From: Escherichia coli
GTDB lineage: Bacteria; Pseudomonadota; Gammaproteobacteria; Enterobacterales; Enterobacteriaceae
Length of the DNA stretch: 64,000 nt
Assembly (NCBI RefSeq): GCF_024700885.2
Contig: NZ_CP117016.1
Reading direction: 5' to 3' (one strand)
Shown: positions 844 to 4,139 of the stretch, piece after piece
Position numbering within the stretch: position 1 is the first letter of the stretch
Layout of the letters: every line of letters begins with the position of its first letter
The notes under the pieces: generated by a model
Told to the model about the DNA's origin: nothing
Database searches by the model: none
What the model saw: only the letters and a program-made list of their open reading frames with translations
Program-made: the position numbers and the translations under genes

Positions 844-1740
844 TCAGACCCCGTTGGCAAGCCGCGTGGTTAACTCATCCATAAAATATCGCGCAATGGC
901 GGGCATCCCCTTTCGCCCGGCAAATAAAGCATACAACGGTCTGGGTATGCCGCTCCACGGTGCGAACAGGCGCACCAGTTCACCGTTGGCAAGCCCCTGT
1001 TTACAGGCAAATTGAGGCAATAACGCCACGCCATTCCCGCCAAGCACTGCCTGCAACATGACGCGAATGTTATTTGTCTGCAAACGCGCCTCGGGATGCA
1101 GCGTAATCTCCTGGTCGCCATTCATTAACTGCCACTGGCTCCCGCCATTGTTCGTCAGGCGGAGGATCCCGTCGACGCGGTTAAGATCGTCAATGGCCTT
1201 CACCTGCGGATGGCGGGCCAGCCACTGCGAACTGGCAACTAAAATATCAGCCTGGGTATGTAATTTTTTATAATGCAGCGTCGAGTCCGCAAGCGCGCCG
1301 GAAGCCGTAACCAGCGCAATATCAATGCCTTCAGCGACCATATCCACCGGGCGATTAATTGCCAGCAGTTGCACCTTCGCCAAGGGCCAGCGGGCGATAA
1401 ATTCACTGACGAACTCACCAAACCATGTTTCAGCCATAAATACCGGCGCGCTGACGCGCAGCATTCCCTGTGGGCTTTCCTGGGCGGCCATCACCACCGC
1501 TCTGGCCCGTTCCCCCTGAGCCACCAGCGCCCGACACTCGACAGCAAACTGTTCCCCTGCCGCCGTCAGGGCCAGACGCCGCGTAGTTCGCTGAATAAGC
1601 CTCACGCCGAGGCGCTCTTCCAGCGCTGCCATTCGACGGCTTAATACCGATTTCGACACACCCGCACGCAGCGCCGCCTGGCTGTAGCTGCCTTCATCGG
1701 CAATCAGGGCAAAGTAGTAGTAATCATTCCAGTCGATCAT
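844..1740 (-). CDS. LysR-family transcriptional regulator (accessory; K-12 has only the yqfE remnant here, from memory)
   Basis: 298 aa ORF with N-terminal HTH typical of LysR regulators ([32 protein letters not shown]); divergent to 1841 gene. Confidence 0.85.
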
Positions 1741-1840
1741 GATTGTTCTATTTTCACAACAATGAAGTTCAATTATGTCTATTTAATCACCATATCAACA
1801 ACAATTAAACTTCTCTCATCGCAGAAATGAGAGCAACCCC

Positions 1841-2475
1841 ATGAAAATTCTCCATATCGATAGCAGTCCAATGCTTAAGCATTCAAGTTCGCGGAGCGGA
1901 AATTAAGCCAGGCGCTGGTAGAAGCGCTTTGCCAACGTTTCGCGCAAGCCACAATTATTCATCGCGACGTTGGCCTGACGCCCCCACCCCATTTGCGTGA
2001 AGAAACCTTTCTGGCGCTTTGCGGTAAAGCGGAGTGCGAGAACGCACAAATTCAGCAGGAGGTGAATGATATCCACGCTGCTATTGATGAACTGGCATCG
2101 TGCGATGTGCTCATTATTGGCGCGCCGATGATTAATCACAGCGTTTCATCTGGCCTCAAAACCTGGATAGATCAGGTCTGTCAGGCTGGTTTAACGTTTC
2201 GTTTTACTTCCGCTGGTGCCGTTGGGTTACTGACGGATAAACCGACGTTTATTGTCTCGACGCGCGGCGGTATCTATTGCGATGAAGCACATCTGGCGCT
2301 GGATCATCAGGAAAGTTATCTGCAAGCCACGCTGAAATTAATGGGCATTACCAATACACATATTTTACGTGCGGAAGGCGTCGACAAAACCCAACCGGGA
2401 CGCGAACTCGCCGAGCAAAATGCATTAGCGCAAATCCCTGATCTCATAACACACGTATTTAATCATTATCTTTAA
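1841..2475 (+). pseudogene. AzoR/AcpD-family FMN-dependent NADH azoreductase-like gene, frameshifted
   Basis: ATG at 1841 gives MKILHIDSSPMLKHSSSRSGN then stop at 1904-1906; the rest of the flavodoxin-fold protein continues in another frame (track ORF 1993..2475); N-terminus aligns with E. coli AzoR [25 protein letters not shown]. Confidence 0.7.
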
Positions 2476-2491
2476 TATAAAAGGAGTTATT

Positions 2492-2752
2492 ATGTCTATT
2501 AAGCAAAATTTATTTGCCGCATTATTTCTTTGCACTCTCACAGGACACGCATTTGCAGCAACCGAGATACACAAACCGGACAATAATCTTGAACAGTTAT
2601 CAAAAGTGAGCATGTCCACACACAATAGCAATCCAGCGGGCGTTGAAAGCCAAATCAAAGAGAAAGCGGAAGAGTTACAAGCCAGCAATTACTACATCAG
2701 TTCTTTCTCCGGTAAAAATTATATCCACGCCACTGTGATTTTCTATAAATAA
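2492..2752 (+). CDS. DUF1471 (BhsA/YhcN-family) small secreted protein
   Basis: 86 aa, signal peptide, C-terminal region resembling BhsA family end (..SGKNYIHATVIFYK); AAGGAG SD 7 nt upstream; 16 nt after AzoR-like stop. Confidence 0.75.
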   Translation: MSIKQNLFAALFLCTLTGHAFAATEIHKPDNNLEQLSKVSMSTHNSNPAGVESQIKEKAEELQASNYYISSFSGKNYIHATVIFYK

Positions 2753-2813
2753 TCACTCTGTTTAACGGGAGCATGGAATTATTCCATGCTCCGCTGCCAA
2801 AATGAAATAAAAA

Positions 2814-4139
2814 ATGAAAAAAGCTAATCTTACAGGTACGTTGGTTTGCTTTGTCGCATGCCTTATTTTTTTGTCGTCCGGTGATATTTTTCGTGAAAAG
2901 CCAATCGCGCTAATATGGTTCCTTCGACAAAACATACTCTTTTTTACGGGAACCCTTGCGTGGTGTCTGATGACGCTGACGATGTGTTTATCGTTGCGTT
3001 CATCATGGCTTAACAAAGTGCTGGGCGGTCTGGATAAAGCATGGCGATTACATAAGTGGGCAGGAATATGCGCCATAGCGTTTGCTTTCGCCCACTGGCT
3101 GGATGAAAAATTACCCCAGTTATTCGTCGCCTTTGGCTGGCTTACTCACCCTGGTAAAATCGTTGATATTAACCTGACGCCAGTACAAGAAAATTGGCTT
3201 CATGCGGGACTGTTGGTGGGTGAATGTGCAATGTTTATTATGATAGCGATGATTTTCGTGTCTCTTAGTAAAAAAGTTCCCTATCATTTATTTCATCTTG
3301 TTCACCGTTTGTTCCCCGTCTTTTATCTGGCAATTGCCTTTCATGTGTTTACTGCTTTGTTTAAATCATACTGGTGGGAAACTCCTGCTGCGTATTTATT
3401 AATTTTAATTACTATTCCGGGCGTCTTTGCGGCTTTCATTTCGCTGCTGAAATTAAACGGTAGTAAAAACAAGCATCAGGCTACCATTAAAAACATTGTT
3501 AACCATCCGGGACAAATTACCGAAGTCACCCTTGAGCTGGAACATGCCATCGACTATTCTCCGGGACAGTTTGCATTCTTAACGTTCGCACACAGTAAAG
3601 AATCTCACCCTTTTACTATCGCTTCATATACCAAAGAGAAGAACACGTTGCGCTTTGCGATCAAACATTTAGGGGATTATACCTCGACTCTGGCATCCTC
3701 GATAAAAATCGGCCAGTCCGCCTTCGTTGAAGGGCCATGGGGAAAGTTTGATTTTACTCTCCCTTGCTCCCACCAGGTCTGGATAGCAGGAGGCATCGGC
3801 ATTACCCCCTTTATCGCCCAGCTTGAGTATCGTAAACATCATGGCGCGTCCTTTGTTCCTGTGGATCTCTGGTATTGCGTCAGCCGAAGCGAGGATGCCT
3901 GGTATATTGATAAACTGACCTCACTTTGTGCCCAGGCCAGGGTCACACTGCATCTGCTTGATGCGCATAAAGGTGAGCGCCTACAGGTGCACTATCTTAC
4001 TGATAAAATAGCAAATAAAGGTGACACCCATTTCTGGTTTTGCGGCCCACAGAGTTTTGCCAAAGCGCTCAGCAAAGGGTTATATGAAAATGGGATTGCC
4101 AGCCAAAACTTCCATTTCGACCGTTTTTGTATGCGTTAA
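2814..4139 (+). CDS. NOX/ferric-reductase-like flavocytochrome (FRD transmembrane domain fused to FAD/NAD(P)H dehydrogenase domain)
   Basis: 441 aa; H-x13-H ([15 protein letters not shown]) and H-x12-H ([14 protein letters not shown]) bis-heme motifs; HPFTIAS FAD motif; [11 protein letters not shown](P)H motif; C-terminal CGPQSF. Confidence 0.8.

Follow-up and report, generated by a model that had tools for sequence, protein, structure and literature searches.

Here, we focused on a four-gene redox locus lying between rpiA and argP in a 64,000-nucleotide stretch of Escherichia coli DNA (contig NZ_CP117016.1, assembly GCF_024700885.2; hereafter the window, with position 1 as its first letter). 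The locus encodes a LysR-type regulator, an AzoR-like reductase, a small secreted DUF1471 protein and a membrane enzyme of the bacterial NADPH oxidase (NOX) type. We established its gene content, the protein families, folds and cofactor motifs of its products, the conservation of the cassette and of its promoter region, the purifying selection acting on it and its deletion history in E. coli.

Gene content of the rpiA-argP interval

The regulator gene (844-1740, minus strand) is intact and encodes 298 residues; it lies next to rpiA (129-788, minus strand). A non-coding divergent promoter/operator region of 100 bp (1741-1840) separates it from three genes read on the plus strand, i.e. the AzoR-like gene (1841-2475), assigned from Pfam and solved relatives to the flavin mononucleotide (FMN)-dependent NAD(P)H quinone/azo reductases and frameshifted in the window, the DUF1471 gene (2492-2752, 86 residues, YdgH/BhsA/McbA family) and the gene of a SpNOX-type transmembrane flavocytochrome b (2814-4139, 441 residues, bacterial NOX or ferric-reductase-domain family). 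The argP gene starts at 4210 on the plus strand. Re-reading of the open reading frames upheld the coordinates given by a first-pass annotation of the window, as well as its two intergenic gaps of 16 nt (2476-2491, AzoR-like/DUF1471) and 61 nt (2753-2813, DUF1471/NOX-like). The G+C content is 57.5 % for the LysR gene, 48.4 % for the AzoR-like gene, 39.1 % for the DUF1471 gene and 44.5 % for the NOX-like gene, against 53.0 % for rpiA, 54.3 % for argP and 50.8 % for the entire window; the last two genes of the array are indeed more AT-rich than the flanking genes, as had been claimed. Isolate MLI114, obtained from human stool in Mali, is 100 % identical to the window over positions 700-4300. None of the four module proteins matched a PADLOC defence model.

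The NOX-like protein contains the Pfam domains Ferric_reduct, FAD_binding_8 and NAD_binding_1, and its closest solved relative is SpNOX, the NADPH oxidase of Streptococcus pneumoniae (E = 4e-26). It was examined with the bacterial NOX filters of Hajjar et al. 2017 (PMC5676040), i.e. the flavin adenine dinucleotide (FAD) motif H[PSA]F[TS][LIMV], an NAD(P)H motif and two His-x12/14-His motifs at least 20 residues apart, in helices 3 and 5. The protein carries HPFTI at position 265 and GIGITP at position 327, together with the heme motifs H80-x13-H94 and H164-x12-H177. Among 46 homologs, invariant positions include H265 and P266 of the FAD motif, G327, G329 and P332 of the NAD(P)H motif and all four heme histidines, which align with H69/H83 and H129/H142 of SpNOX (SpNOX numbering from PMC11564096); Y157 (equivalent to SpNOX Y122), CGP410-412 and the C-terminal aromatic residue F438 are invariant as well.

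An AlphaFold2 model of this protein (predicted local distance difference test 90.2, predicted template modelling score 0.87) consists of long N-terminal helices followed by a beta/alpha domain. Its top Foldseek matches were to SpNOX over the full length (TM-score 0.72-0.81), then to NOX5, NOX2 and DUOX1. As modelled, the protein has the six-helix membrane domain and the C-terminal dehydrogenase domain of this family. SpNOX (PDB 8qt6, 8qq7) is likewise a single polypeptide in which a six-helix ferric-reductase domain with two bis-His heme sites precedes FAD and NAD(P)H domains. The two proteins differ in sequence (about 22 % identity over the structural alignment) and in the stretch between the third and fourth transmembrane helices, which is non-helical in our model (residues 107-122). 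In addition, the E. coli protein belongs to a Gram-negative host, so its outer heme would face the periplasm, and its gene is embedded in a conserved LysR/AzoR-like/DUF1471 cassette.

These features might also be those of a dedicated superoxide-generating NADPH oxidase, for which O2 would be the acceptor and periplasmic or extracellular reactive oxygen species the product, serving signalling or competition, while the AzoR-like and DUF1471 proteins would protect the producer. The presence of all the bacterial NOX motifs (PMC5676040), the structural matches to SpNOX, NOX5, NOX2 and DUOX1 and the reduction of O2 by SpNOX in vitro (PMC5676040, PMC11564096) agree with such a role. However, SpNOX is devoid of a canonical O2-reduction centre and reduces cytochrome c directly, a protein acceptor having been suggested (PMC11564096), and the cassette contains no gene for handling reactive oxygen species (periplasmic superoxide dismutase, catalase or peroxidase). 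We consider this role quite improbable.

The AzoR-like protein was characterised from the intact allele of strain TUM13936 (209 residues). It matches Flavodoxin_2 (PF02525) over residues 1-193 (6e-41), and its closest solved relatives are the azoreductases of Pseudomonas putida, Pseudomonas aeruginosa and E. coli, with full-length alignments (E = 2e-30 to 5e-22). Although the Flavodoxin_2 fold is common to this protein, to E. coli AzoR (b1412) and to the Pseudomonas azoreductases, the best NCBIfam azoreductase model (PRK13556) scored 75 bits, far under its cut-off of 188; the protein is therefore a member of a divergent subfamily and not an AzoR ortholog. Unlike AzoR, it belongs to an enterobacterial subfamily of its own that is paired with a divergent LysR gene. 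The azoreductase family reduces quinones besides azo dyes (PMC4051601).

Alignment of the window with TUM13936 revealed a 5-bp tandem duplication (GCGGA GCGGA) in this gene, with the extra copy at 1891-1895 on the plus strand; the duplicated reading within 1880-1900 is GCGGAGCGGA. Translation from the ATG at 1841 is shifted past codon 17 and gives MKILHIDSSPMLKHSSSRSGN before a stop codon at 1904-1906, and removal of the 5 bp yields a 209-residue protein again. The longest reading frame left in the window covers 1993-2475 (160 residues), and the PGAP product in MLI114 is a truncated protein of 186 residues starting at a CTG at 1915. The 17 severed N-terminal residues presumably include the FMN-phosphate loop of AzoR structures. 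The 5' segment of the gene spans 114 bp in 245 of the 246 carrier genomes, compared with 119 bp in the window, and the version with the duplication was found in MLI114 only (1/246). Strain A10 shares its LysR, DUF1471 and NOX protein accessions with MLI114, yet its AzoR-like gene is intact (630 nt). Given this distribution, the duplication would be either a recent, strain-specific lesion or an assembly error. Because the reductase gene is frameshifted, the window strain would possess at most three intact genes (regulator, DUF1471 and NOX-type enzyme). The content and order of the four-gene module proposed at first pass thus stand, but the AzoR-like reading frame is not intact in the window.

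The DUF1471 protein matched the NCBIfam models of BhsA, YhcN, YbiJ, RclB and McbA over its full length (3.6e-14 to 3e-6). The best model was that of the copper/stress protein BhsA, with 53 bits against a cut-off of 90, and the RclB model gave 2.3e-6. All of these scores were under the curated cut-offs and did not support orthology with BhsA, YhcN, RclB or McbA. PF07338 is recorded for homologs that are 94 % and 37 % identical, and an N-terminal signal peptide ending in GHAFA/ATE can be read from the sequence. The gene is the most constrained of the module, with a ratio of nonsynonymous to synonymous substitution rates (dN/dS) of 0.02-0.07, and the AAAGGAG ribosome-binding site in the 16-nt gap preceding it is conserved. 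Taken together, domains, models and fold bear out the annotated set of a cytoplasmic flavin reductase, a periplasmic DUF1471 protein and a transmembrane electron-transfer enzyme.

Conservation of the cassette and of its divergent control region

In one Salmonella enterica genome, an E. coli-type cassette likewise lies between rpiA and argP, with protein identities of 87-95 % to the window; the host was recognised by its RpiA, ArgP and FbaA, each of which is identical to a Salmonella entry. The synonymous divergence (dS) is 0.17-0.57 for the module and 1.3-1.4 for the flanking genes; since the former is well below the latter, the block has been transferred between genera. Another Salmonella cassette, hereafter type 2, occupies a different locus and displays the same LysR/AzoR-like/DUF1471/NOX-like order (69 %, 71 %, 37 % and 51 % protein identity, respectively), one copy being located beside an integrase fragment. 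A Dryocola-like enterobacterium contains the LysR, AzoR-like and NOX genes only (55 %, 62 % and 51 % identity), with a 47-nt gap, and Hafnia and Rahnella harbour the divergent LysR/AzoR-like pair alone. The divergent orientation of this pair is kept across five genera. This pattern suggests a layered origin, in which the LysR/AzoR-like pair would have been joined by the NOX gene and then by the DUF1471 gene; the steps in G+C content fit this order. Values of dN/dS of 0.02-0.24 over the four genes (0.06-0.21 for the LysR gene) indicate purifying selection, and all four genes are intact in the four carriers sampled (4/4). A10, IMT16316 and TUM13936 are examples of strains with an intact module.

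Full-length matches of the regulator to LysR-family NCBIfam models (best 1.8e-50) were all under the equivalog cut-offs, which sets it apart from the named E. coli regulators. The HTH_1 and LysR_substrate domains are recorded for a 95 %-identical homolog, and Pfam domains for other homologs too. The divergent region (1741-1840) is conserved between cassettes: the E. coli and Salmonella type-2 versions are 76 % identical there although their synonymous sites are saturated, whereas in the same comparison the flanking coding DNA reaches 52-65 % and the remaining gaps 34-52 %. Conserved blocks of the region are also found in the Dryocola-like cassette. Hence, comparative evidence lends good support to the single regulated unit postulated at first pass, as its gene order and divergent promoter region are seen to recur in three cassette types; co-transcription is something that we infer.

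The region contains a dyad, ATTGTT-N10-AACAAT (1742-1763), which is a candidate LysR recognition site. E. coli, Salmonella type 2 and the Dryocola-like cassette (L106) have the same arms, and 5 of the 10 spacer positions differ. Constant arms around a varying spacer are the pattern expected of a protein-binding site, to which LysR would be the protein that binds. The dyad is located 78-99 nt 5' of the AzoR-like ATG and immediately 5' of the LysR ATG, overlapping the leader of the regulator's own gene, and this position matches that expected for the recognition site of a LysR-type transcriptional regulator (LTTR). A second conserved block, ATCAACAACAATTAAACT (1794-1811), might be an activation site or a promoter element; within it, AACAAC(A/G)ATTA is common to E. 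coli, L106 and the Rahnella LysR/AzoR pair. Another dyad, ATCAT-N11-ATGAT (1723-1743), has the canonical T-N11-A spacing and overlaps the first six LysR codons. It is kept in Salmonella type 2, which the conserved coding sequence for MIDWND may alone explain.

A scan of the promoter region for Fur boxes gave a best match of 12/19, equal to that of shuffled sequence, and so did not support iron regulation. This bears on a possible function as a metal reductase. In such a system, Fe(III) or Cu(II) chelates in the periplasm would be the substrates of the membrane enzyme, so that the metal could be taken up or detoxified; the DUF1471 protein would affect copper permeability in the manner of BhsA/ComC, and ferric chelates or quinones would be reduced in the cytoplasm by the AzoR-like enzyme. 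The NOX-like protein does contain a ferric-reductase domain, the best NCBIfam match of the DUF1471 protein is BhsA, which lowers copper permeability (cited in PMC12096828), and in S. pneumoniae the use of Fe-catechol is tied, through the SifR regulon, to a flavin ferric reductase as well as to a protein with a ferric-reductase domain (PMC9218516). Besides the lack of a Fur box, this function is at odds with the type of the regulator, an LTTR and not Fur, CueR or CusR, with the very low ferric reductase activity of SpNOX (PMC11564096) and with a BhsA score that stays under the equivalog cut-off (53 vs 90 bits). We regard it as unlikely.

Within the array, the short gaps (16 and 61 nt), the conserved ribosome-binding site and the lack of a predicted internal terminator support an operon. 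No intrinsic terminator was predicted within the array or in the stretch leading to argP. Apart from this lack, the simple scans for promoters and terminators returned counts that match the shuffled expectation and are uninformative. The gap between the DUF1471 and NOX-like genes contains a stem-loop (2768-2792, plus strand) with an 11-bp stem and no U tract, which the terminator scan did not flag. The 86-nt stretch around it (2745-2830) folds at -20 kcal/mol (z = -4.6), and none of 200 shuffled sequences was equally stable. In other alleles the loop differs and one C>T change retains a G-U pair; at the equivalent place in the Salmonella type-2 cassette, a hairpin unrelated to this one is found. 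These observations suggest that the hairpin may be an RNA-level element that balances the membrane enzyme against the products of the upstream genes. An Rfam scan for this hairpin and other RNAs returned one sub-threshold chance match only.

Some further details were noted around the NOX-like gene. A mini reading frame (ATG AAA TAA, 2801-2809) ends 4 nt ahead of its start codon and may reflect chance or translational coupling, the start codon itself having no obvious Shine-Dalgarno sequence. From its stop codon to the argP start there are 70 nt (4140-4209) with no predicted terminator, so that read-through from the module into argP is possible in carriers.

Distribution and deletion history in E. 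coli

At least 80 % of the region is covered in 232 of 5426 complete E. coli genomes, and the 5' end of the AzoR-like gene is found in 246. The remaining genomes have 8-14 % coverage, i.e. a remnant only. Carriage of the module thus amounts to about 4.5 % of complete genomes, with deletion in about 95 %. In K-12 MG1655, just a 231-bp pseudogene, yqfE, is annotated between rpiA and argP. Alignment of this interval confirmed the earlier statement that the module genes are not intact in K-12; that yqfE is the sole remnant needs correction, as the interval also holds about 57 bp of the AzoR-like 3' end. Four pieces were distinguished in it: (i) the LysR 3' end (248 bp, window 789-1036); (ii) the AzoR-like 3' end (about 57 bp, 91 % identical, window 2388-2444); (iii) a piece of about 68 bp with no significant match (K-12 MG1655, L009, 2131-2198), whose local alignment score against the cassette versions examined was 11, with a null mean of 11; (iv) 56 bp upstream of argP (window 4154-4209).

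The deletion junctions are identical in all six remnant alleles aligned (K-12, S3, O157:H7, L3Cip3, Z1323 and E09), some of which bear secondary small deletions, and clone D i2 has the same remnant protein accession as S3. No flanking direct or inverted repeats and no insertion sequence (IS) elements marking an insertion were found at the module. Carriage by plasmids was rejected, as the three PLSDB matches are chromosomes of 4.8-4.9 Mb with the remnant only. Together, the shared junctions, the lack of repeats and IS elements and the lack of plasmid copies point to a module that would be ancestral in E. coli and that was probably removed by one old two-step deletion, now dominant in the species, and not to an island gained recently by the carriers. 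The module had been called accessory; it is absent from most E. coli, and is better described as ancestral and mostly deleted, given the scar shared by the remnants. Between the window and TUM13936, dS is 0.12-0.25 for the module and 0.04-0.06 for rpiA and argP; with module values above those of the flanks, the retained alleles are either older than their flanks or introgressed.

Two minor observations concern these genomes. The three PLSDB entries (NZ_OL790696.1, NZ_CP141089.1 and NZ_CP134663.1) are evidently E. coli chromosomes filed as plasmids. E09 (NZ_CM143881.1) has an insertion of about 130 bp just past the rpiA start and extra small deletions in the yqfE fragment, and is the most rearranged remnant among those seen.

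An independently degraded copy of the module is present in Escherichia sp. MOD1-EC7003 (L026, NZ_PTRE01000050.1, 3236-5489). Its LysR gene is split over two frames, its AzoR-like gene is intact (93 %) and its DUF1471 gene is cut after about 43 codons and fused to NOX residues 279-441. One could accordingly view the locus as a decaying leftover of adjacent genes with no joint function and an incidental resemblance to an operon: about 95 % of E. coli have lost the module, it is internally deleted with a LysR frameshift in MOD1-EC7003 and frameshifted within the AzoR-like gene in the window, and its G+C content is mixed (57 % for LysR to 39 % for DUF1471). Against this view, three cassette types located at different loci, with proteins about 50 % identical, keep the gene order, the dN/dS values are 0.02-0.24, the promoter region is conserved and all of the sampled carriers are intact (4/4). 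A leftover of this kind appears very unlikely to us.

Proposed function and related systems

We propose that the locus is one LysR-controlled operon, in which quinone reduction in the cytoplasm is combined with the export of electrons from NAD(P)H to the periplasm, and we assign a probability of roughly 0.6 to this proposal, which was built from sequence comparisons and a predicted structure. The regulator, read leftward, would probably bind the dyad at 1742-1763 and control a rightward transcript for three proteins. In the cytoplasm, the AzoR-family enzyme would act as an FMN-dependent, two-electron NAD(P)H quinone/azo reductase. The NOX-type enzyme would take hydride from cytoplasmic NAD(P)H onto FAD, from which electrons would travel one at a time via two b hemes (His80/His164 and His94/His177) and reach an acceptor at the periplasmic side, for which O2, metal chelates, quinones or a protein are candidates; the authors of the SpNOX study also raise a possible protein acceptor (PMC11564096). 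Such an operon would most likely respond to a small redox-active compound, for example a quinone, a catechol or a metal complex of these. The compound would be the inducer, and the AzoR-like enzyme would reduce it in the cytoplasm while the NOX-type enzyme would handle it at the periplasmic face. As for the DUF1471 protein, it would be a later addition with an accessory role on the envelope side.

Several observations weigh against this proposal. The physiological acceptor of SpNOX is unknown to its authors and the enzyme is promiscuous in vitro (PMC11564096). As the Dryocola-like cassette is missing the DUF1471 gene, the latter is not essential to the core. No AzoR-like or DUF1471 neighbour was found at any of 79 species-representative loci of NOX homologs of at most 43 % identity (0/79), these NOX genes being solo and in varied contexts, so the pairing is lineage-restricted. 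The stable hairpin between the DUF1471 and NOX-like genes could attenuate or terminate transcription and uncouple expression of the NOX gene. Concerning the dyad, ATTGTT-N10-AACAAT occurs once in the 64-kb window and at least once in 30 of 100 shuffled sequences, meaning that a chance match is not rare, and its even N10 spacing departs from the canonical T-N11-A. Finally, loss in about 95 % of E. coli and degradation in MOD1-EC7003 and in the window strain make the module dispensable.

A more specific scheme is a dedicated redox relay between two compartments, in which the NOX-type enzyme would act on one particular partner or substrate in the periplasm. The DUF1471 protein, the most constrained of the module, could itself be this partner or could bring the acceptor to the exposed outer heme. 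We consider this scheme speculative and decidedly unlikely. If true, a physiological function would be known for the first time for a bacterial NOX homolog, as would a mechanistic role for a DUF1471 protein, and layouts of the rclABC type could be suggested to work by the same principle.

Two precedents, rclR/rclABC and the SifR regulon, fit the operon proposed here. RclR is an AraC-type regulator, and RclA an enzyme of the pyridine-nucleotide-disulfide family. The E. coli rclR/rclABC system, which responds to reactive chlorine and hypothiocyanite, has the same layout and order as the locus studied here, i.e. a divergent regulator followed by a flavoenzyme reductase of the cytoplasm, a DUF1471 protein of the periplasm and a protein of the inner membrane (PMC12096828, PMC7527725). 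Homology is limited to the DUF1471 component (RclB model 2.3e-6, below the cut-off), which makes the likeness an architectural analogy and not a membership; RclC belongs to DUF417 and has neither FAD nor heme domains (PMC12096828). In S. pneumoniae, the quinone sensor SifR controls a flavin azo/quinone/ferric reductase together with a diheme membrane protein (PMC9218516); the latter, SPD_0527, is described only as a ferric-reductase-domain protein. SifR is an Rrf2 regulator whereas a LysR protein is found here, its target genes lie at scattered locus tags as a regulon and not in one cassette, and no DUF1471 gene is included. MsrQ (YedZ), acting with Fre and MsrP, is likewise a heme b protein with a ferric-reductase domain that moves cytoplasmic reducing power to a periplasmic acceptor (PMC5676040, PMC12525009). 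In contrast to the NOX-like protein, MsrQ is not fused to an FAD/NAD(P)H domain and works with a defined partner in the periplasm, the molybdoenzyme MsrP, an enzyme of a kind that the cassette does not encode.

Bacterial NOX homologs are structurally well described, while their physiological role and true electron acceptor are explicitly stated to be unknown (PMC11564096). The operon proposed here offers a practical entry point to this question, as it represents a NOX version in a genetically tractable E. coli, accompanied by a regulator of its own, by an operator region that is conserved and by two neighbours that are conserved as well. These neighbours suggest quinones, catechols, metal chelates and host oxidants as first stimuli, and natural controls are available in strain A10 (intact reductase), the window strain (frameshifted reductase) and K-12 (clean deletion scar). 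In addition, gene loss is neatly illustrated by this locus, with one ancient two-step deletion common to the sampled remnants and about 4.5 % of genomes keeping the module.

Our literature search returned no relevant paper on yqfE, on the four-gene combination or on the conserved cassette with its operator. The component families are known and routinely annotated, and the bacterial NOX family, including an E. coli member, is already published. Hajjar et al. cloned this member, 'EcNOX' (UniProt L2VL28, from E. coli KTE10), and its heme signal was weaker than those of SpNOX and PaNOX (PMC5676040). L2VL28 may be either the NOX of the chromosomal cassette or a 38 %-identical paralog borne by plasmids or IS elements. 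This second NOX-type gene occurs in some E. coli and Salmonella as a solo gene, on plasmids (matches H95-H98) or beside IS66 or other transposases, and lies at 5001-6308 of one E. coli contig (L014).

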